64,000 bases of DNA, taken from Candidatus Woesebacteria bacterium RIFCSPHIGHO2_02_FULL_42_20 (GTDB taxonomy: Bacteria; Patescibacteriota; Microgenomatia; UBA8517). Location of the stretch: NCBI GenBank assembly GCA_001792535.1, contig MGGS01000013.1, forward strand, positions 64,692 through 128,691, given 5' to 3'. A program made the translations under genes and the position numbers. Below the pieces are notes generated by a model. That model saw nothing but the letters and a program-made list of their open reading frames with translations, did no database searches and was not told the origin of the DNA. This document shows positions 3 to 61,193 of the stretch, piece by piece (within the stretch, counting starts at the first letter, position 1; each line of letters begins with the position of its first letter).

Positions 3-341
3 AAAAGAGTAATAGTAATTGCCGATGGAGTAATTATTTTTGATGGGGGGCTTGGTGAGCTTGTAGCACTTTATGCCAAAGATAAGATAATTAAGCTTGT
101 CCTGTCTGACGATGGCGACTACAAAAAACTGGAGAAGATTGGGAAGGTAAAGGAGATTGCGATCCCAAAAGTAGAAATTGTAGTGCCCAGAAGCACGGCG
201 GCGCTGGCGGCGTCTGAGATACTTCAAAATTTTGCAGTCGAGGATCTTACTATCGAAGAAGAGCCGATAGAGAGTGTGATTCGTAGAATTTTCAGCGGCG
301 AGGTCAAAAAACCCGGTCTAAGAAAAAGGAAGAATGGATAA
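3..341 (+). CDS. ABC transporter ATP-binding protein, C-terminal fragment; the 5' end lies outside the window
   Basis: Frame-3 ORF open from the window edge (…KRVIVIADGVIIFDGGLGELVALYAK…) ending at TAA 339-341. It overlaps the start of the downstream permease genes in an ATGGATAA arrangement, as in ABC-2 operons. Confidence 0.55.
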   Translation, partial: KRVIVIADGVIIFDGGLGELVALYAKDKIIKLVLSDDGDYKKLEKIGKVKEIAIPKVEIVVPRSTAALAASEILQNFAVEDLTIEEEPIESVIRRIFSGEVKKPGLRKRKNG

Positions 342-1134
342 GTATATCGCGATTTTTAAAATTTCTTTCGCCCAGGAGTTTGTATACAAATTGAATTTCC
401 TCATGTGGCGCCTGCGCAATGTCATGCAGGTTTTTTTGGTTTTTTTTCTTTGGGATGCAATCTTTTCGGACCCGCGCTCGTCGGTTTTTGGTTATAACCG
501 TTCAACCATTTTGACCTATGTCTTTGGGTTAATTATAGTTAGATCCGTTGTTTTATCAGCAAGATCAGTTGACGTCGCCGGCGAAGTTAGCCGCGGTGAC
601 CTTTCCAATTATTTGATCAAGCCAATCAGCTATTTTAAATATTGGTTGACCAGAGATCTTTCAAGCAAAACGCTTAATTTGCTTTTCGCAGTTTTTGAGG
701 CGTCGGTTTTGATGGTGATACTAAAACCGCCGTTTTATCTGCAGACTCACTTTGTGCAGTTACTGCTTTTTGCATTGGCAATTTTTATAGCAATTTTGCT
801 GTTTTTTTTACTGATGTTTCTTTTTAGTTTGTTTCCTTTGTGGTATCCTGAACAAGCTTGGGGGGCGTCGTTTCTGCTTTTTATTTTTGTAGATTTTTTG
901 GGTGGCGGTATTTTTCCTCTCGACGTGTTGCCAGCGAATATCCAGAGTGTTTTATATCTTACTCCCTTTCCATATTTAATGTTTTCGCCGTTACAGATTT
1001 ATTTGGGGAAATTTGCCACGCCTTTGGCAGTGGAAAGGGTGCTTTTAGGGTCACTGTGGGTCGCCATACTGGTTTTTGTGGTAGGTAAGGTCTGGAAGCT
1101 GGGGCTAAAAGTTTATAGATCGGAGGGCAGATGA
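334..1134 (+). CDS. ABC-2 family transporter permease
   Basis: 266-aa polytopic hydrophobic protein directly downstream of the ABC ATPase fragment. It is translationally coupled to the next permease by an ATGA overlap. Confidence 0.7.
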   Translation: MDKYIAIFKISFAQEFVYKLNFLMWRLRNVMQVFLVFFLWDAIFSDPRSSVFGYNRSTILTYVFGLIIVRSVVLSARSVDVAGEVSRGDLSNYLIKPISYFKYWLTRDLSSKTLNLLFAVFEASVLMVILKPPFYLQTHFVQLLLFALAIFIAILLFFLLMFLFSLFPLWYPEQAWGASFLLFIFVDFLGGGIFPLDVLPANIQSVLYLTPFPYLMFSPLQIYLGKFATPLAVERVLLGSLWVAILVFVVGKVWKLGLKVYRSEGR

Positions 1135-1925
1135 TGCCTAAAAGAATAAAAAGATACTTGACGGTTTGGTGGATGATGAGCAAAAACTCATTTTTGGCGG
1201 TTTTTTATGTAAAGATTGCTCTATCAATATTTTTGACGGGAAAACTGCTGCGGTTTGGATTCTTTTTGGTATTTATGTTTTTTTTGCTAAAAGGGTCAGG
1301 TGGCCTGGCGGGATACACTCTTAATCAGTCGATATTTTTCTTCTTGACCTTTAATCTTGTTGATGTCGCGTCTCAGTTTTTATTTCGCGAAGTATATAGA
1401 TTTAGACCACATTTGGTTTCCGGAGATTTTGACCTGACTTTGGTAAAACCGCTAAGCCCGTTATTTAGGAGTTTGTTGGGCGGTGCTGATGTAATCGATT
1501 TAATAACAATTCCGCCTTTAGTTCTGGCGGTAATTTATGTAGGCGGCCTTTTAGGCCCATCCGTGTTGAATGCTGTGTACTACTTACTGCTTTTGGTAAA
1601 CGGCCTTGCTCTTGCCGCTGCATTCCACATCTTTGTACTCGGATTTGGGGTAATTACGCTGGAAGTGGATCACTTGGTTTTTATATATCGCGACTTGGTT
1701 AATTTGGGTAAATTGCCTGTAGACATCTATCGTGAGCCGATTAAGTCGGTCATAACATACCTTATCCCGGTTGGATTAATGGTAACTTTGCCCGCAAAGG
1801 CGCTGATGGGTTTGGTCAGCCCGGTGGGAATTATTACGACACTTGGGATAAGTGTGTTAGCTTTATTTGCCGCAAACAGGTTTTGGCAGTTTGCTTTGAC
1901 AAAATACACAAGCGCGTCAAGTTGA
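1131..1925 (+). CDS. ABC-2 family transporter permease (second subunit)
   Basis: 264-aa multi-TM protein with a 4-nt start/stop overlap with the upstream permease. It ends …LTKYTSASS*. Confidence 0.7.
   Translation: MMPKRIKRYLTVWWMMSKNSFLAVFYVKIALSIFLTGKLLRFGFFLVFMFFLLKGSGGLAGYTLNQSIFFFLTFNLVDVASQFLFREVYRFRPHLVSGDFDLTLVKPLSPLFRSLLGGADVIDLITIPPLVLAVIYVGGLLGPSVLNAVYYLLLLVNGLALAAAFHIFVLGFGVITLEVDHLVFIYRDLVNLGKLPVDIYREPIKSVITYLIPVGLMVTLPAKALMGLVSPVGIITTLGISVLALFAANRFWQFALTKYTSASS
1892..1925. repeat. left copy of a 34-bp imperfect direct repeat (TGCTTTGACAAAATACACAAGCGCGTCAAGTTGA)
   Basis: 30/34 identical to 2443..2476. Both copies encode the permease C-terminus LTKYTSASS*. Confidence 0.8.
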
Positions 1926-2197
1926 TGAAGAAAATAGTTTATACGAAACACGCCGAAGGGAAACTTGAGAGATTAAGGAGGGTTGGCTCTAAAGTTTCGA
2001 AAAATCTGGTTGCAGAGACTGTTTTCGAACCGGAGAATATTGATTTCGAAATTGACTATCCAAAAATTATTGCTTCTCGCCCATTAGATAAGCTGCACAT
2101 CCTCAGAGTTGTTTTTAGATATGAAGATGATAAAATTATAATCGTAACTTTGTATCCAGCAAGGAAAGGCAGATACTATGAAAGCAAAAAAAACTAA
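1925..2197 (+). CDS. DUF4258-family protein (putative toxin-like component)
   Basis: MKKIVYTKHAEGKLERL… N-terminus typical of DUF4258. The start overlaps the permease stop (TGATG). The ORF-track start at 1883 is probably too far upstream. Confidence 0.55.
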   Translation: MKKIVYTKHAEGKLERLRRVGSKVSKNLVAETVFEPENIDFEIDYPKIIASRPLDKLHILRVVFRYEDDKIIIVTLYPARKGRYYESKKN

Positions 2198-2420
2198 AAG
2201 TGGATATCCAGAGTTTGTTTATGAAAAAGAAGATGATGTTCTGAATATTTGGTTATCTAAGAGGAAAATCGATTATGCGGAGCAATCAGGCGACGTCATT
2301 ATACATTTTACCAAAAACAGCGAGCCGGTTTACATTGAAGTGCTTGACGCCTCTAAATTTCTTCGGGTACAATCCCGTGCTTTACCAAAAGACCTAAGGG
2401 AGACACTTTTTGTTGCCTGA
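2178..2420 (+). CDS. DUF2283-family protein (putative antitoxin-like partner)
   Basis: 80-aa ORF overlapping the DUF4258 gene by 20 nt. DUF4258 and DUF2283 are known to pair. The motif …YEKEDDVLNIWLS… resembles DUF2283. Confidence 0.5.
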   Translation: MKAKKTKSGYPEFVYEKEDDVLNIWLSKRKIDYAEQSGDVIIHFTKNSEPVYIEVLDASKFLRVQSRALPKDLRETLFVA

Positions 2421-2442
2421 CATGGCAGAAGCTTTTTGTAAT

Positions 2443-2476
2443 CTGCTTTGACCAAGTACACCAGCGCGTCAAGTTA
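2443..2476. repeat. right copy of the 34-bp imperfect direct repeat (TGCTTTGACCAAGTACACCAGCGCGTCAAGTTAA)
   Basis: Sits immediately before the miaA ATG at 2480. It is non-coding here but would still translate as LTKYTSASS*. Confidence 0.8.
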
Positions 2477-2479
2477 ATC

Positions 2480-3439
2480 ATGCAAAAACTACTGGTAATT
2501 TGCGGTCCTACCTCAACAGGGAAAACGAAATTGGCCCTACACCTTGCCAAGAAGTATAACAGTGAACTTATTTCTGCCGACTCCAGGCAGGTTTATAAAG
2601 GAATGAATATCGGAACAGGCAAGGAATTGCCAGCAAATTCAAAATTTAAGATCCAAAGTTCAAAATTGCCAGGATATTATGAAATCAACGAGGTTAGGGT
2701 TTGGGGTTACGATCTTGTTCCCCCCACTCGCTCTTTTAGCGTCGCACAATATAAAAAAATAATTGACAAAGTGTTACTCACTATATTTAATCGCAAGAAA
2801 TTACCCATACTTGTAGGCGGGACAGGCCTTTACATTAAAGCGATCATTGACGACATTTCTACGCTTGGCGTACCAAGAAATACTAACCTTCGAAAAAGTT
2901 TGCTAAATAAGACTTCAGACGAACTTTATGCTTTGCTGTCGCAATTTGACCCCATAAAGTCAGCTTCGTTAAATGTTTCGGACAAAAAGAATCCCAGAAG
3001 ACTGGTTCGCGCAATAGAAGTGGCTAGTCGCATCAACAAGCTTAGTGAAATTAAACCTAAAAAGATTAATTACAATTTGTTATTAATCGGTCTGATATTG
3101 TTTAGGCAAGATCTGTACAGCAAGATTGCTAAGCGAGTAGATCGGCGAATTGACCAGGGAATGGAAACGGAAATTCAAAAACTAATTAGTTCGGGAGTAA
3201 GATGGGGCAATCAGTCAATGAGTGGTATGGGCTATAAACAATGGGAGGGATACTTCAGCAAGAAAGAGAGTTTAAAAAAAGTGATCGATAAGTGGAAGGT
3301 AGCCGAGCGGAGTTATTCCCGGAAGCAGATTGCTTGGTTTAAAAAGGATAAAAGAATAACCTGGTTTGACATTGCTAACAAAGGTTATCCTCAAAATGTG
3401 GAAAGCTTGGTAAGAAAATGGTATAAAGAAACAAGCTAA
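2480..3439 (+). CDS. miaA: tRNA dimethylallyltransferase
   Basis: LLVICGPTSTGKTKLALHLAKKYNSELISADSRQVYKGMNIGTGK P-loop and substrate motifs. 319 aa. Confidence 0.9.
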   Translation: MQKLLVICGPTSTGKTKLALHLAKKYNSELISADSRQVYKGMNIGTGKELPANSKFKIQSSKLPGYYEINEVRVWGYDLVPPTRSFSVAQYKKIIDKVLLTIFNRKKLPILVGGTGLYIKAIIDDISTLGVPRNTNLRKSLLNKTSDELYALLSQFDPIKSASLNVSDKKNPRRLVRAIEVASRINKLSEIKPKKINYNLLLIGLILFRQDLYSKIAKRVDRRIDQGMETEIQKLISSGVRWGNQSMSGMGYKQWEGYFSKKESLKKVIDKWKVAERSYSRKQIAWFKKDKRITWFDIANKGYPQNVESLVRKWYKETS

Positions 3440-3442
3440 GTT

Positions 3443-4435
3443 ATGCACCAAAAAATTGAAATTTCACATAAGACTATCATTTTTACGGTTCTTTTCTTGG
3501 TGTTCTTGTGGTTTCTCTATTTTATTCGCGACATTATTTTTTTGGTTTTCGTTGCAATACTTATTTCAACGATATTAAACCCAATAGTTAAAAAGATTCA
3601 TAAGTTTAGAATACCCCGTGCATTTGCGGTGATAATTGTTTATCTATCGGGACTTGCCTTTTTGATTTTCGCCTTAGGTACTGTTCTGACTCCGCTTGTG
3701 GAGCAGACAAGAAATTTTACTAATAACTTCCCTCTTTACTTGGAGAGGTTGCAAATACCTGAAAGTGTGGTTAATCAAATTGCCAATGAGATTACTTCGC
3801 AGTTTGGAAGCATCTCTTCACAACTACTTAGGCTTGGTGTTTCAATTTTTTCAAATATATTGACAATTTTTGCAGTTTTGGTTATTGCTCTTTATCTGCT
3901 TATTACGCGGGAAAAAATTGACAAACAGCTCTATTCCATATTGGCCGCCGACAAGGCTAAAAAGATCGAAAGAGTGTTGAATCAGTTGGAGAAGGATCTG
4001 GGTGGCTGGACCAGAGGGGAATTATTGCTCATGTTTATGGTGGGGTTTACGACTTATTTGGGTTTGACTATTTTAGGTATCCCTTTTGCCGTTCCTCTGG
4101 GTGTGCTTGCCGGTTTGTTGGAAGTTGTACCAAATCTTGGCCCCGTGGTTGCAGCTATTCCTGCAACTATAGTGGGGTTTGCCATCTCCCCTATCAGTGG
4201 TTTTGCGGTTGTCGCACTTTCATTTTTAGTCCAGCAAGTGGAAAATTATGTTTTTGTTCCAAAAGTTATGGAAAAGTCTGCCGGCATTAATCCCGTCGTG
4301 ACACTGCTTGCGCTTTTGATTGGTTTTCGACTTGCAGGGGTTTCTGGGGCAATTCTGGCTGTTCCTGTAGTTATAACTCTTAGGGTAATAATTAAAGAAT
4401 ATTACCCGCCCACTGCTTCTCTTAAAGATCGATAA
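3443..4435 (+). CDS. AI-2E family transporter (PerM/YhhT-like permease)
   Basis: 330-aa polytopic membrane protein with the characteristic …LLEVVPNLGPVVAAIPA… segment of UPF0118/AI-2E transporters. Confidence 0.75.
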   Translation: MHQKIEISHKTIIFTVLFLVFLWFLYFIRDIIFLVFVAILISTILNPIVKKIHKFRIPRAFAVIIVYLSGLAFLIFALGTVLTPLVEQTRNFTNNFPLYLERLQIPESVVNQIANEITSQFGSISSQLLRLGVSIFSNILTIFAVLVIALYLLITREKIDKQLYSILAADKAKKIERVLNQLEKDLGGWTRGELLLMFMVGFTTYLGLTILGIPFAVPLGVLAGLLEVVPNLGPVVAAIPATIVGFAISPISGFAVVALSFLVQQVENYVFVPKVMEKSAGINPVVTLLALLIGFRLAGVSGAILAVPVVITLRVIIKEYYPPTASLKDR

Positions 4436-4464: not shown

Positions 4465-4782
4465 CTCTGGAGGAAGGGCAATCGATCGCCAACAGCTACG
4501 CGGTTGTGGGCGGTAGGAAAGTCCAGGCAGCTCAAGGCAGGGTGGTCGTCGTAAGGCGGCACGCGAAAGCGCTAGAAAGTGCCACAGAGACAACGACTCA
4601 TCTTGGACCTAACCGGTCTAAGAAAGAGGGTGAAAAGAGGAAAACCTCCCCGCTGCAACCTCCGAATGGGGCGTTTGCTTGCCTACGCAAGTAGAAGGTA
4701 GCCTTGCCGAGCCCCGAAGCTTGAGGGCATAGATTGATGATTGCCATAAACAGAACCTGGCTTACTATCCTCCGGAGCCAAA
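4465..4782 (+). ncRNA. rnpB: RNase P RNA, bacterial type A
   Basis: GC-rich patch in an AT-rich genome. It contains GGAAAGTCCAGGC…AAGGCAGGGTGG, GTGCCACAGAGACAACGACTC, AGGGTGAAAAGAGG and the 3' block GGTAGCC…GCTTGAGGGCATAGATTGATGATTGCCATAAACAGAACCTGGCTTAC. These align segment by segment with the E. coli M1 RNA motifs GGAAAGUCCGGGCUCC, AGGGCAGG, ACAGAGAGCAAACC and ACAGAACCCGGCUUA. P1 can form between CTCTGGAGGA (4465-4474) and TCCTCCGGAG (4768-4777). Confidence 0.85.
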
Positions 4783-53782: not shown

Positions 53783-53805
53783 GCTGAGCGGGCCAGTCTA
53801 GGACC
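53783..53805. repeat. 23-bp direct repeat, copy 1 (GCTGAGCGGGCCAGTCTAGGACC)
   Basis: 22/23 identical to 54607..54629. The two copies bracket gene 53815..54588. Confidence 0.7.
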
Positions 53806-53814
53806 TTCTTGTTC

Positions 53815-54588
53815 TTATATTATTACGTTATAGGGAGTTGGGAGTTTAAAAAGAAAACTTCCGTAATTTATCAAGTGTCCCAGATTATTTTTAATTGCCC
53901 ATTTAGTACATATCTTTCGATTATAAAGTTGTCCCTTTGAGGTTAACCTATTCTTTTTCCAATAAGATTCATGTATTTGATGATAACTAAGCCATTTTAT
54001 TGGTTCCGGTAAGCCAGATTTTAGCATTGCCGCCATAACACAGGCATCCCAGGCCTCAAAACCAATTAATGCGTCGGGTAAATTTCCTTTGTGGTTATTC
54101 CACCACCTTCGGGTGAAAAAGAAGACATCTGAACCAGCAGACCAACGACCTAGAGGTAGCTTATCTCTCAGTTGATCTCTGGTAATAGTATTTTTAGGAA
54201 GGTCCTTTTTTGAAAAATCTACTCTATGAGAATACCCACACTCCCATTTTTTCAGAGAGTCTCTAATAAAATTTGACGCGTTAGTTACAAATGAGATGTC
54301 GGAATTTGTATATAAGAATAAATCACAATCAGGATAGGCTGAAAGGCCGTAGTCAACGACATCTTTTAAAAATGGCATAGTTTTCTTCTCGCCCAAGCTT
54401 AAAGAATTTCTTTGTCCATTTTCTAAACTAAACTCTGCAATTAAAAACCCATATTTATCGTTGTTGTAAAATTCCTGCCATGTTCTTTTTGCTCTTATCA
54501 TCCTGTCCGTGGTTAAATTGTTTGCTTTCCACCAGTTGTAGATATGAACTATCTTCTTATTCATAGAGAAATTTGTGAAATTATACAC
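53815..54588 (-). CDS. hypothetical protein (possibly a DxD-type sugar transferase-like protein)
   Basis: 257 aa. …CDLFLYTNSDISF… is a possible DxD-like segment. No confident family. Confidence 0.35.
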   Translation of the reverse strand: MYNFTNFSMNKKIVHIYNWWKANNLTTDRMIRAKRTWQEFYNNDKYGFLIAEFSLENGQRNSLSLGEKKTMPFLKDVVDYGLSAYPDCDLFLYTNSDISFVTNASNFIRDSLKKWECGYSHRVDFSKKDLPKNTITRDQLRDKLPLGRWSAGSDVFFFTRRWWNNHKGNLPDALIGFEAWDACVMAAMLKSGLPEPIKWLSYHQIHESYWKKNRLTSKGQLYNRKICTKWAIKNNLGHLINYGSFLFKLPTPYNVII

Positions 54589-54606: not shown

Positions 54607-54629
54607 GCTGAGCAGGCCAGTCTAGGACC
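54607..54629. repeat. 23-bp direct repeat, copy 2 (GCTGAGCAGGCCAGTCTAGGACC)
   Basis: Located 19 nt upstream of the start codon of the 257-aa gene. Confidence 0.7.
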
Positions 54630-54646
54630 CAATTGTCCCATAATCG

Positions 54647-55048
54647 CTATTCCAGCTCAAACCATAATGGACTCTTTTTTGGATTACCGTTGTAGTAATT
54701 AACTGTTATCTCATCATCTTTCTTAATATTTTTTAAAGCAACAAAATCAATTATCATATCTTTTTGTTTTATCTTGAATCTTGCGTTTCGTTTATATGTA
54801 TGGTTATATATTGATCCAAAACCCAAGGCAATTGCTGATCGTTCCTTATTTCTGCCAAAATAAAAGAAATAAGTAACAAGAATACTCTCTCTTAAATTAG
54901 ATGTGTCGTATTTTGGAACTTCAATAACAGGGCATCTTTCAATAATTTCGTCTTTTTTAATATCATGCCTGGCAAAAACACCTCGGCCTGCATTATGAAT
55001 TTTTGATTTACTAATATACACATTGTCAGAAGCGGGAAAATTTTTCAT
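54647..55048 (-). CDS. SET-domain protein (putative protein-lysine methyltransferase)
   Basis: NAGRGVFARHDIKKDEIIERCP (GxG/SET-N), GSIYNHTYKRNARF (NHxxxPN-like) and DEITVNY (ELxxDY) motifs. The start is set at the internal ATG 55048, because the ORF-track N-terminal extension would run through the tRNA-Gln gene. A TTGTTATAAT box lies 6 nt upstream of the ATG. Confidence 0.65.
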   Translation of the reverse strand: MKNFPASDNVYISKSKIHNAGRGVFARHDIKKDEIIERCPVIEVPKYDTSNLRESILVTYFFYFGRNKERSAIALGFGSIYNHTYKRNARFKIKQKDMIIDFVALKNIKKDDEITVNYYNGNPKKSPLWFELE

Positions 55049-55090
55049 GATGTGATTATAACAAAGTTGATGTTGTCTTTGAGAAGAGAG

Positions 55091-55161
55091 CTGCCCAGCC
55101 ACGATTCGAACGTGGATTAGATGGTTCAGAGCCATCTGGCCTACCGTTAGCCGACCGGGCA
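55091..55161 (-). tRNA. tRNA-Gln (anticodon CUG)
   Basis: 71-nt cloverleaf folded by hand. The acceptor stem is TGCCCGG/CTGGGCA with a U1:A72 pair and discriminator G73, a hallmark of bacterial tRNA-Gln. D-arm GGCT/GGCC, anticodon stem GATGG/CCATC with loop CTCTGAA (U33, CUG, A37), and T-arm CCACG-TTCGAAT-CGTGG. No CCA is encoded. Confidence 0.85.
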
Positions 55162-55199
55162 ATAATGCCTTTGCAAGTATATCAAAATTATGGCCGGAA

Positions 55200-55859
55200 T
55201 CACACGATGGAGATTGAAGCTTCTTGTTCAAGGACTTGTAAACTTCCCACGACAATTTTCTTATGCGAGCGGGCTATAACTTTCTTTCTTGCCAATTTCT
55301 CCATGGCAAGACTTACGGTTTCTCTGGTAATCCCCGCTAAGTCCGCGATATCCTGGTGGGTGAGTGAAAGATCGATTAAAACGCTGCCATCTTTAAAACG
55401 CTTGCCAAACCTTTTTGCAGAAATAAGAATAGCCGAGGCAACTCTGTTATACGAACTTCCGTAAAGGAGTTGCGAAACATTGGTAAGCAGGCCATCCAAC
55501 CCTACCAGAATGCGTTTTGTCAGATCAAATAATACGCTTGGATCTTCTTTTACAAACCTTAGCACTTTTTCTTTCGGGACACGGTAAATATTAGCGGTGG
55601 ATATTGTCTGGTAGAAATAGGTATTTTTAGCCTCACCCAAGGCCCACATCATTGGAAAAAATGACCCGTGTTTGAATATATTTAACGTAAGCTCCGAACC
55701 ATTTTTGAAAATTGAATTCATTTTTACATACCCTTTGCTCAAATAGTAAACGCCATTGGGTTCATCCCCGGCGTTAATTAAGATTTCTCCACGCTTACAT
55801 TTCAAAAAGGTGCCGTGTGAGAAGAAATCTGAAATTTTTCTATCAATAACTTTCCCCAT
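55200..55859 (-). CDS. Crp/Fnr-family transcriptional regulator
   Basis: N-terminal cNMP-binding beta-roll and C-terminal HTH …HQDIADLAGITRETVSLAMEKL…. Confidence 0.8.
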   Translation of the reverse strand: MGKVIDRKISDFFSHGTFLKCKRGEILINAGDEPNGVYYLSKGYVKMNSIFKNGSELTLNIFKHGSFFPMMWALGEAKNTYFYQTISTANIYRVPKEKVLRFVKEDPSVLFDLTKRILVGLDGLLTNVSQLLYGSSYNRVASAILISAKRFGKRFKDGSVLIDLSLTHQDIADLAGITRETVSLAMEKLARKKVIARSHKKIVVGSLQVLEQEASISIV

Positions 55860-60477: not shown

Positions 60478-60786
60478 ATGGATTCAAATTACGGCGGTGT
60501 TGTTTGGACAAAGCACGTACTACAAAGGTTGGCGGAGCGGGGGATGAAGCAAGGTGATGTTTGGGCTACATGGAGCCGGCCCCAAAACAACCGGTTTTCG
60601 CAGGTGCGAGGTGGATGGGTTTTTGACAGAATTTGGGGAAATCAAAAAATCGAAGTCGTAGCCAAAAAAAATGCTAAGGACAGGTGGGTAATTCTTTCCG
60701 CTTGGTCCAAACCGGTTCATAAAAAGCAACAAAAACAAAACATTCCGGTTTTGTTTAATTTCGTTAAAAAGCTATTTCGCAAATGA
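60478..60786 (+). CDS. DUF4258-family protein (second copy)
   Basis: …VWTKHVLQRLAERGMKQGDV… parallels the YTKHAEGKLERL block of 1925..2197. Confidence 0.5.
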   Translation: MDSNYGGVVWTKHVLQRLAERGMKQGDVWATWSRPQNNRFSQVRGGWVFDRIWGNQKIEVVAKKNAKDRWVILSAWSKPVHKKQQKQNIPVLFNFVKKLFRK

Positions 60787-61193
60787 AGCATAAAGAAGAA
60801 AATCTGGCTAAAATACTTAAAGACTTTAATACAAGATTAGTGGGAGATGAGGAAACTAAAAAAATTATTTGCGCAACCCTACTTGTATTTCCAAAAGAAG
60901 TGATCGATTTCGTTGTAAAAAATGTCTGGTTCGTGTCCGCTTTTGATGACGCTTGGTCGTTTACACTGGACTCGGAAGAATTATGCGGAAGGACAATAGT
61001 CTTTTTGAGCGACGATTTACTTCGTCAGAGTAAGGACAGGGTTACTTATTCCGTTGCCCATGAAATTGCCCATATAATGCTCGGCCACAAAAATCCATAT
61101 AATGCAAAGTTGCCTCAAACAACCGAAAAGAAGTTTGAAACGGGGGCGGACGAGTTTGCGAAGTATTATTTGGATTTATCTAAAATTAGTTGA
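60783..61193 (+). CDS. ImmA/IrrE-like HExxH metallopeptidase-domain protein
   Basis: HEIAHIMLGH zinc-binding motif. Overlaps the upstream DUF4258 gene by 4 nt (ATGA). Confidence 0.5.
   Translation: MKHKEENLAKILKDFNTRLVGDEETKKIICATLLVFPKEVIDFVVKNVWFVSAFDDAWSFTLDSEELCGRTIVFLSDDLLRQSKDRVTYSVAHEIAHIMLGHKNPYNAKLPQTTEKKFETGADEFAKYYLDLSKIS

Follow-up and report, generated by a model that had tools for sequence, protein, structure and literature searches.

The stretch of DNA analyzed here, hereafter called the window, comprises 64,000 nucleotides (nt) of contig MGGS01000013.1 (positions 64,692 to 128,691) from Candidatus Woesebacteria bacterium RIFCSPHIGHO2_02_FULL_42_20. It opens within an ABC-transporter operon in which the 3' end of an ATPase gene is followed by permease 1, permease 2, two small open reading frames (ORFs), miaA and a gene for an AI-2E-family transporter. 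The two small ORFs lie in an insert (1925-2443) that holds a toxin-like gene of 90 amino acids (aa) and a DUF2283 gene of 80 aa, and this insert is bracketed by a 34-nt direct repeat of the permease 3' end. This report concerns the toxin-antitoxin (TA)-like cassette so formed, the repeat that flanks it, and the way in which it probably entered the operon. Coordinates are collected in Table 1; L numbers are our handles for the loci and lineages compared.

Table 1. Features of the window and of related loci (positions refer to the window unless a locus is named).
Feature	Position	Strand	Remarks
R1, last 34 nt of the permease 2 gene including the TGA stop	1892-1925	+	Upstream, functional repeat copy; TGCTTTGACAAAATACACAAGCGCGTCAAGTTGA
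R2, second copy of the 3' end of the permease 2 gene, non-coding, TAA stop	2444-2477	+	TGCTTTGACCAAGTACACCAGCGCGTCAAGTTAA; followed by TC and the miaA ATG
Toxin-like gene, 90 aa	1925-2197	+	Divergent DUF4258-like family; predicted BECR / RelE-ParE fold
DUF2283 gene, 80 aa, presumed antitoxin	2178-2420	+	Pfam DUF2283 (PF10049), 35.4 bits, E 1.2e-8
Shine-Dalgarno (SD)-like sequence AAGGAAAGG	2161-2169		Eight nt upstream of the DUF2283 start; read from the sequence
3' flank of the insert, 23 nt	2421-2443	+	CATGGCAGAAGCTTTTTGTAATC
Permease 1	334-1134		Pfam ABC2_membrane_6
Permease 2 of the ABC-2 transporter operon, 264 aa	1131-1925	+	Pfam ABC2_membrane_6, E 1.7e-27; ends FALTKYTSASS, then TGA
miaA (tRNA dimethylallyltransferase), 319 aa	2480-3439	+	Pfam IPPT, E 6.7e-53
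AI-2E-family transporter gene	3443-4435		After miaA
Bacterial RNase P RNA class A	4466-4780	+	109 bits
Reversed cassette, L021	L021:2052-2532		Between permease and miaA; permease 61% identical to that of the window
Reversed cassette, L023	L023:442-927		Permease 46% identical; extra DUF218-like gene between permease and cassette
Reversed cassette, L059 (Woesebacteria RIFCSPHIGHO2_02_FULL_38_9)	L059:4513-5010		Permease 72% identical; extra 268-aa gene between permease and cassette
DUF4258-like gene, 102 aa	60478-60786	+	DUF4258 E 2e-4, 22.1 bits, below the 25-bit cut-off
ImmA/IrrE-type gene, 136 aa, HEIAH motif	60783-61193	+	Peptidase_M78 E 5.7e-5, above the cut-off

The last 34 nt of the permease 2 gene (R1) recur immediately before miaA as a second copy (R2). 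Compared position by position and without gaps, the copies agree at 30 of 34 positions, R2 carries no insertion or deletion relative to R1, and both translate as ALTKYTSASS followed by a stop. An earlier note on this DNA had described the duplication in these terms, and correctly so, apart from placing the second copy at 2443-2476, one base too far to the left. The four differences (ACA/ACC, AAA/AAG, ACA/ACC and TGA/TAA) are all synonymous, the functional stop of the permease in R1 being TGA and that of R2 being TAA. Two nucleotides, TC, separate the R2 stop from the miaA ATG at 2480. Because an in-frame TAA at 2439-2441 precedes R2, the second copy is not part of any long ORF. The motif encoded at the repeat is conserved in the host protein: the C-terminal (K/R)YTSASS of the permease is kept in relatives down to 46% identity, with FYTSASS in L059.

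The repeat is real and lies far beyond chance. At spacings of 100-1500 nt it is the top-scoring 34-mer direct match of the whole window, and the best matches in five shuffles reached 24-25 of 34 positions against the 30 observed, which rules out a chance repeat. It is also the top family in a repeat search of the window, where it extends weakly to 1878-1934 / 2430-2486 at 79% identity. Just to the left of the repeat, 2430-2443 agrees with 1878-1891 of the permease gene at 9 of 14 positions. This similarity allows three readings: the duplication may once have reached further and have decayed here, a microhomology may have steered the right-hand join, or chance may be at work, both stretches being T-rich and 2430-2443 overlapping a terminator-like T-run. 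In the R2 region we found no RNA structure and no Rfam family (fold z-score +1.1). An assembly artefact is ruled out by 15 independently assembled contigs, drawn from the NCBI metagenome-assembled genomes GCA_001793275.1 and GCA_001793255.1 and from JGI and ENA metagenomes, which are identical over 1101-3524 of the window wherever they overlap, and by a sixteenth contig with a single-nucleotide polymorphism at 2052. The cassette is thus fixed and identical across the 15 contigs of the population.

The earlier note had labelled the 90-aa protein DUF4258 and the pair of genes a TA-like module. The label needs qualification, since the protein is a divergent relative of DUF4258 and not a threshold member. 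Two results speak against the assignment: the match to Pfam DUF4258 (PF14076) reaches 16.2 bits (E 0.013), below the 25-bit gathering cut-off, and the E-values of the structural matches described below are modest (best 2.9e-3). Family and fold nevertheless support it. The protein belongs to a family of ~85-aa proteins with 25 close homologues and 568 cluster representatives at E <= 1e-3, and DUF4258 is matched at E <= 0.1 by 24 of 26 aligned members (best E 1.8e-5); PBECR3 is matched by 14 of the 26 and BrnT by nine. An AlphaFold2 model of the protein (predicted local distance difference test, pLDDT, 88; predicted TM-score, pTM, 0.78) was compared with the PDB by Foldseek, and the top 23 matches all fall in the RelE/ParE superfamily (HP0894/HP0892, BrnT, YoeB, ParE2, HigB2, RelE, YafQ and Cami1), with probabilities of 0.87-1.0 and TM-scores of ~0.45-0.6. 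The protein looks intact, since all invariant or nearly invariant residues of the family (T7 K8 H9, P36, D40, R61, E67 and the KGRYY motif) are kept. In a published list, DUF4258 is one of the BECR-fold families that supply the toxins of type II TA modules, and its activity is given as unknown (PMC11980606). A profile search against PDB sequences gave noise (ribosomal protein S17 at E 0.2), and searches of PADLOC and NCBIfam gave no match for either cassette protein. On the strength of family and fold we accept the 90-aa protein as belonging among the BECR-fold toxins despite its sub-threshold DUF4258 score, and the module as TA-like. To judge from the two families, the toxin would act as a small ribonuclease-type growth inhibitor that is neutralized through binding of the DUF2283 protein. 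As a separate observation, 13 distinct segments of P0037, a protein of 1971 aa, match the toxin profile, so that P0037 may be a repeat protein or may contain the toxin domain in an array like those of polymorphic toxins.

The partner gene is a bona fide DUF2283 gene, its match exceeding the 23-bit gathering cut-off and covering profile positions 4-49 of 49. It lies on the same strand as the toxin gene, with an overlap of 20 nt, and follows the toxin gene in all ten genomic contexts inspected (the window, L019, L021, L022, L023, L026, L030 and L059, together with the partial L024 and L025). These observations agree with the two-gene module that had been proposed.

The anatomy of the cassette suggests that it depends on the host operon for its expression. 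The permease TGA and the toxin ATG have one A in common (TGATG), and no SD-like sequence is seen ahead of the ATG, whereas free-standing copies of the cassette bear, 7-10 nt ahead of their start, an extended -10 box that is TGnTATAAT-like. Judged from this comparison, the copy in the window is a promoterless version wired into the host operon. Overlap of start and stop codons is seen in two other family members, as ATGA after a 6PGD-like gene (L022) and as TAATG after a carbohydrate kinase gene (L026). Since the ATG overlaps the permease stop and has no SD, the toxin would probably be translated by termination-reinitiation coupled to the ABC-transporter operon, while the DUF2283 gene would be translated from its own SD. 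No SD precedes miaA, here or in relatives. A weak 5-bp hairpin at 2413-2428 overlaps the DUF2283 stop codon and is followed by a T-run at 2433-2437; if functional, it would lower read-through into miaA. The DUF2283 gene also contains a promoter-like element, TTGACG-18-TACAAT (2344-2373). Promoter and terminator counts are at the level of shuffled sequence, and both the hairpin and the promoter-like element are as expected by chance.

Relatives in which the junction is empty allow the state before the insertion to be reconstructed. Two species-representative genomes were recovered with the permease protein: L016 (Woesebacteria RIFCSPHIGHO2_01_FULL_39_23), with a permease 77% identical to that of the window and the junction TAA-AT-ATG, and L017 (RBG_13_46_13), with a permease 62% identical and the junction TGA-TACC-ATG. 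In both, the permease gene is intact, its product ends in RYTSASS, and miaA begins 2 or 4 nt further on. A degenerate DNA pattern of the junction, run against metagenome contigs, added seven or more lineages whose permeases are 52-62% identical to that of the window and in which a full-length permease ORF stops 2 nt before the miaA ORF. Wherever a match is not cut by a contig end, the reading frame that stops at the junction encodes a full-length permease (258-277 aa). Empty sites, in which the permease stop, 2-4 nt and miaA follow one another, are therefore known from at least nine lineages, as the earlier note had predicted for relatives lacking the cassette, and among them neither the cassette nor a duplicated permease end was found. 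The spacing seen after R2, stop-NN-ATG, recurs in at least eight other lineages. A duplication without an insert had been named as the pattern that would point to a local tandem duplication, and it was not observed.

This comparison confirms both the insertion and the ancestral junction, which consisted of the permease stop, 2 nt and the miaA ATG within a tight operon. The junction proposed earlier, TAA-N3-ATG, was right in setting the permease directly before miaA; the spacer is two nucleotides long, and the functional stop is TGA, with TAA found in R2. Some empty-site lineages show further irregularities of their own. In L043, L045 and L052, and in L039, L041, L051 and L057, miaA carries N-terminal extensions (MKKLFDLNKLLII..., MNKQKLGKIGTGKLLVI...) that resemble short duplications of the miaA 5' end, and on the reverse strand of L054, at ~975-1065, a 66-nt spacer has a relic stop-GC-ATG at its start. 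Earlier events at the permease-miaA junction may have left these scars.

The same junction is occupied elsewhere. As a new result of this comparison, three other Woesebacteria lineages (L021, L023 and L059) have cassettes next to the miaA ATG in the opposite orientation, and by sequence these belong to a different sub-lineage. Their 5' ends lie 20-22 nt from the ATG, and the spacer motif TATAATA(C/T)CAG that they have in common is the cassettes' own extended -10 box, read on the cassette strand. The antitoxins of the reversed copies are 68-81% identical to one another and 46-48% identical to that of the window, and the toxins are 39-55% identical to the window toxin. Copies in unrelated contexts are closer, at 54-62% for the toxin and 60-65% for the antitoxin. 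Because the window cassette is nearer to these than to the reversed copies, its insertion is an independent arrival of another sub-lineage at the permease-miaA junction. The junction has been occupied repeatedly and, as L023 and L059 also have an additional unrelated gene between permease and cassette, looks like an insertion hot spot. On the ~10 contexts at hand, this may reflect either targeting or a small number of insertion-tolerant sites in a streamlined genome. In the L059 copy, the toxin homologue (L059:4762-5010, minus strand) shows TKN where TKH is invariant in the family, and its last residues are KEE, not KGRYY; by these substitutions it looks like a toxin decaying beside a well-kept antitoxin.

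The unrelated contexts lie after rpsI, carbohydrate kinase, 6PGD-like and TrxB-like genes, and between murJ and a dTDP-sugar isomerase gene. That they are spread over different genomes indicates that the cassette family is mobile. No YTSAS-like remnants of a permease end were seen beside the cassettes in other contexts. A possible second case of a long flank duplication is found at L023, where 945-968 resembles 397-421 over a 23-nt stretch (19/23) that is like the miaA 5' end and lies on the far side of the cassette. This result should be interpreted with some caution, since the match score of 26 is borderline against a null distribution from 500 shuffles with a 99th percentile of 24 and a maximum of 27; it may represent a second case and is suggestive only.

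We consider it likely that the promoterless 0.5-kb TA-like cassette entered the permease-miaA junction by recombination that was not enzyme-specific, and we favor a version in which a foreign permease allele took part. Once the L016 lineage had branched off, this type II TA-like cassette entered the stop-NN-ATG junction, giving the order permease, R1, cassette, R2 and miaA, in which R1 maintains the permease reading frame and R2 preserves the native 34 nt in front of miaA. The source, which is the least certain step, would most likely have been recombination with DNA of a related Woesebacterium, one join being homologous or microhomologous and the other illegitimate, whether by homology-facilitated illegitimate recombination (HFIR), by a template switch or by a Campbell-type event. 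R1 and R2 would then descend from two functional permease alleles, the cassette having arrived with, or recombined next to, the permease end of a related genome, and the synonymous nature of all four differences would follow from this descent. The event would be recent enough for R2 not to have decayed yet. If R1 and R2 recombined, the cassette would be removed exactly, and antitoxin addiction would penalize its loss.

The pattern of differences between the two copies carries much of this argument. If differences fell at random, the probability that four of four would be synonymous is 0.002-0.003, and it is ~0.02 if R1 drifted at synonymous sites only and R2 freely. The synonymous sites of the stretch vary freely between lineages, so that a constraint on R2 at the nucleotide level is not evident. 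That all four differences are synonymous argues against simple neutral decay of one copy. Base composition is uninformative as to import, the cassette having a GC content of 0.35-0.36 against 0.38-0.44 in the flanks, which is within the local range. No transposase or integrase gene was found in or next to the cassette, the insert holding two small genes only, and its neighbors are ABC transporter genes, miaA, the AI-2E transporter gene and RNase P RNA, with no mobility gene among them. No relative of the cassette was found in viral contigs.

Several points weigh against this account. Four sites are a small sample, and p = 0.02 is compatible with a duplication that arose in situ. Outgroup codons polarize the four R1/R2 differences inconsistently. 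In the collections searched we found no permease gene followed by a forward cassette that could have served as the donor, nor did a genome scan, a metagenome DNA-pattern scan and a search for permease homologues recover any relative at 78-100% permease identity; with no relative closer than 77-78%, the insertion can be dated only to after the split from the L016 lineage. Finally, among the flanks of ten other copies of the cassette family, two of which have too little flank, no significant duplication was found except the borderline case of L023; flanking repeats are absent in the eight loci with enough flank (L019, L021, L022, L026, L027, L030, L031 and L059).

The simplest single-event model holds that the target was duplicated in situ at insertion, one template being copied twice, either by filling in of a long staggered break or by a template switch that re-copied the last 34-48 nt, and that the copies then diverged. 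An insert flanked by a direct duplication of its target is the structure such an event would leave, and the 9/14 similarity to the left of the repeat can be read as its decayed extension or as microhomology at the switch point. If R2 had been non-coding ever since the event, however, ~62% of differences would be expected to change the peptide, and none of the four does (p ~0.02); R2 also lacks indels, no cutting enzyme is encoded nearby, and we know of no enzyme that makes 34-bp staggered cuts for a 0.5-kb insert. We therefore regard duplication in situ as possible but doubtful, and the foreign-allele version as somewhat more likely. In another reading, the junction was duplicated in tandem beforehand, leaving a harmless gap in which the cassette landed later. 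The miaA extensions of the L043 and L039 groups and the 66-nt spacer of L054 do suggest a junction prone to small rearrangements; yet a duplicated permease end occurs in none of the at least nine empty-site lineages, where each junction ORF not cut by a contig end is a full-length permease, and we think this order of events very unlikely.

That the cassette is ancient at this site, was inherited vertically and became inverted in the lineage of the window, with the empty sites representing precise losses, is suggested by the reversed homologues that abut the miaA ATG with a common spacer motif in L059, L021 and L023 (permeases 72%, 61% and 46% identical). Such a history is extremely improbable in our view, since the window copy belongs to the other sub-lineage by its antitoxin (46-48% identity to the reversed copies against 60-65% to those in unrelated contexts), an inversion yields no direct repeat of a permease end, and at least nine precise losses would be needed, each restoring stop-NN-ATG. 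The occurrence of one family at the junction in four lineages and in both orientations, the possible 23-nt duplicate of the miaA 5' end beside the L023 copy, and the exact excision that the repeats would permit could all be understood if R1 and R2 were the attL and attR sites of a site-specific element whose recombinase is encoded elsewhere. This explanation is difficult to reconcile with the absence of an integrase in or next to the cassette, with L021 and L059, where no flanking repeat comparable to that of L023 or the window was found, with the family members that lie at unrelated sites without repeats, and with the lack of a relative in viral contigs. In addition, the duplicated segment is the permease end in the window and the miaA start in L023. 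We hold little belief in it. Somewhat less improbable, although still unlikely, is a wider conjecture in which the junction is a specific landing site for recombinase-less TA cassettes in either orientation, which leave exactly by means of 23-34-nt duplications of gene ends, the window and L023 being two fossils of the process. If true, this would amount to homing or Campbell-type mobility of TA cassettes without an element-encoded enzyme.

Among known systems, the insert fits best with the type II TA modules of the RelE/ParE (BECR) superfamily, as a DUF4258-like/DUF2283 type that was inserted as a bare cassette. It resembles such modules in its two small, overlapping and co-directional genes, in the RelE/BrnT/YoeB/ParE fold of the model, in its bona fide DUF2283 partner and the conserved pairing, and in the varied genomic positions that are usual for TA cassettes. 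It differs in gene order, the toxin preceding the antitoxin whereas DUF4258 is tabulated as A/T (PMC11980606), in lacking a promoter of its own, in a toxin gene that has no SD and a start fused to the stop of a host gene, and in its sub-threshold DUF4258 score.

With respect to the insertion itself, an integron cassette would likewise be promoterless and expressed from upstream. It is ruled out here by the housekeeping neighbors, by the absence of an integrase and by the lack of an attC-like site; no palindrome of that kind was seen in the 23 nt after the stop, which show a 5-bp hairpin, although no dedicated attC model was run. Transposons and insertion sequences also leave a direct repeat around a discrete insert, but 34 nt is far longer than their typical target-site duplications. 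A transposon is ruled out, there being no transposase in the insert and no terminal inverted repeats reported at the cassette ends in a repeat scan that covered L018, the locus of the window, only. The target duplication inferred in the earlier note accordingly stands as a structure; transposition as its mechanism does not, there being neither transposase nor inverted repeats and all differences being synonymous. Integrative elements that target the 3' ends of tRNA, tmRNA or protein genes offer another likeness, in that the insert lies between direct repeats of the 3' end (attL/attR), the gene stays intact through its upstream copy, and the differences between R1 and R2 look like those of two functional alleles. 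The present insert differs from them in its size of 0.5 kb, in the absence of an integrase or excisionase and in the other copies of the family, which are without such repeats. An integrase-borne island is ruled out by the lack of a recombinase gene, by the eight other testable loci, which have no flanking repeats, and by L023, whose duplicated segment is a different one.

HFIR and microhomology-mediated template switching are routes for the insertion of foreign DNA, and their classical cases usually delete target DNA and do not duplicate it. The locus resembles them in having no element-encoded recombinase, one boundary in conserved host sequence and patchy microhomology (9/14) at the other, with a target duplication as a possible by-product. 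It differs in that the target is duplicated and in that there is no donor sequence to show the anchor or the breakpoint.

A second DUF4258-like gene, at 60478, had been noted as paired with an HExxH peptidase-like gene and taken as a sign that the module is mobile and modular in this genome. The pairing is borne out by the HEIAH motif and by a Peptidase_M78 match above the cut-off. The 102-aa protein is 26% identical to the cassette toxin over 74 aa (BLASTP, E 5e-4), and its M78 partner resembles the PADLOC models RmrA/CapP, a weaker match to an NCBIfam spr1629-antitoxin-like model falling far below the curated cut-off. By these comparisons 60478-61193 is a different module, built on a distantly related toxin and separate from the inserted cassette. 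As a distant paralogue it speaks for modularity in a broad sense and is silent on mobility, for which the evidence is the variety of places that the cassette family occupies in other genomes. Modularity is supported independently by L027 (1422-1951, minus strand; also L026:2785-3021): within a few hundred bases of a cassette copy, a second DUF2283 gene is paired there with a gene for a PBECR2-domain protein. DUF2283 thus partners with different BECR-type toxins.

Elsewhere in the window, a 30-nt direct repeat (53783-53812 / 54607-54636, 26/30) has a core of 23 nt found nowhere else in the window. Its copies follow the stops of a SET-domain gene and of a 257-aa gene (53815-54588, minus strand), so that the latter, whose function is unknown, sits between long direct repeats in a cassette-like manner. 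A tRNA gene (55091-55161, minus strand) lies inside the mechanical ORF 54647-55255, and the SET-domain gene therefore starts further downstream than the ORF list has it. The GC-rich stretch after the AI-2E transporter gene is accounted for by RNase P RNA, and several mechanical ORFs there are therefore spurious.

The element itself is ordinary in kind, and the concept of a TA module is unchanged by it; the insertion scar is unusually clean, and the locus is of value as a clear-cut case and as a starting point for surveying such cassettes systematically. The movement of TA cassettes between chromosomes without mobility genes is poorly understood, and to our knowledge insertion events in which both boundaries and the empty site are preserved have rarely been documented; in the literature we found nothing specific on TA insertions with long flank duplications, nor on TA modules in Patescibacteria. 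The present locus gives an exact before and after, stop-NN-ATG on the one hand and a stop/ATG overlap, the cassette, a 34-nt remnant and ATG on the other, and the pattern of differences between R1 and R2 bears on the mechanism of insertion. For the biology of the streamlined genomes of the candidate phyla radiation, it adds an operon junction that has been occupied repeatedly by one cassette family, and a selfish module that appears to be wired into a host operon by a start/stop overlap while the essential-type gene downstream keeps its native upstream sequence.

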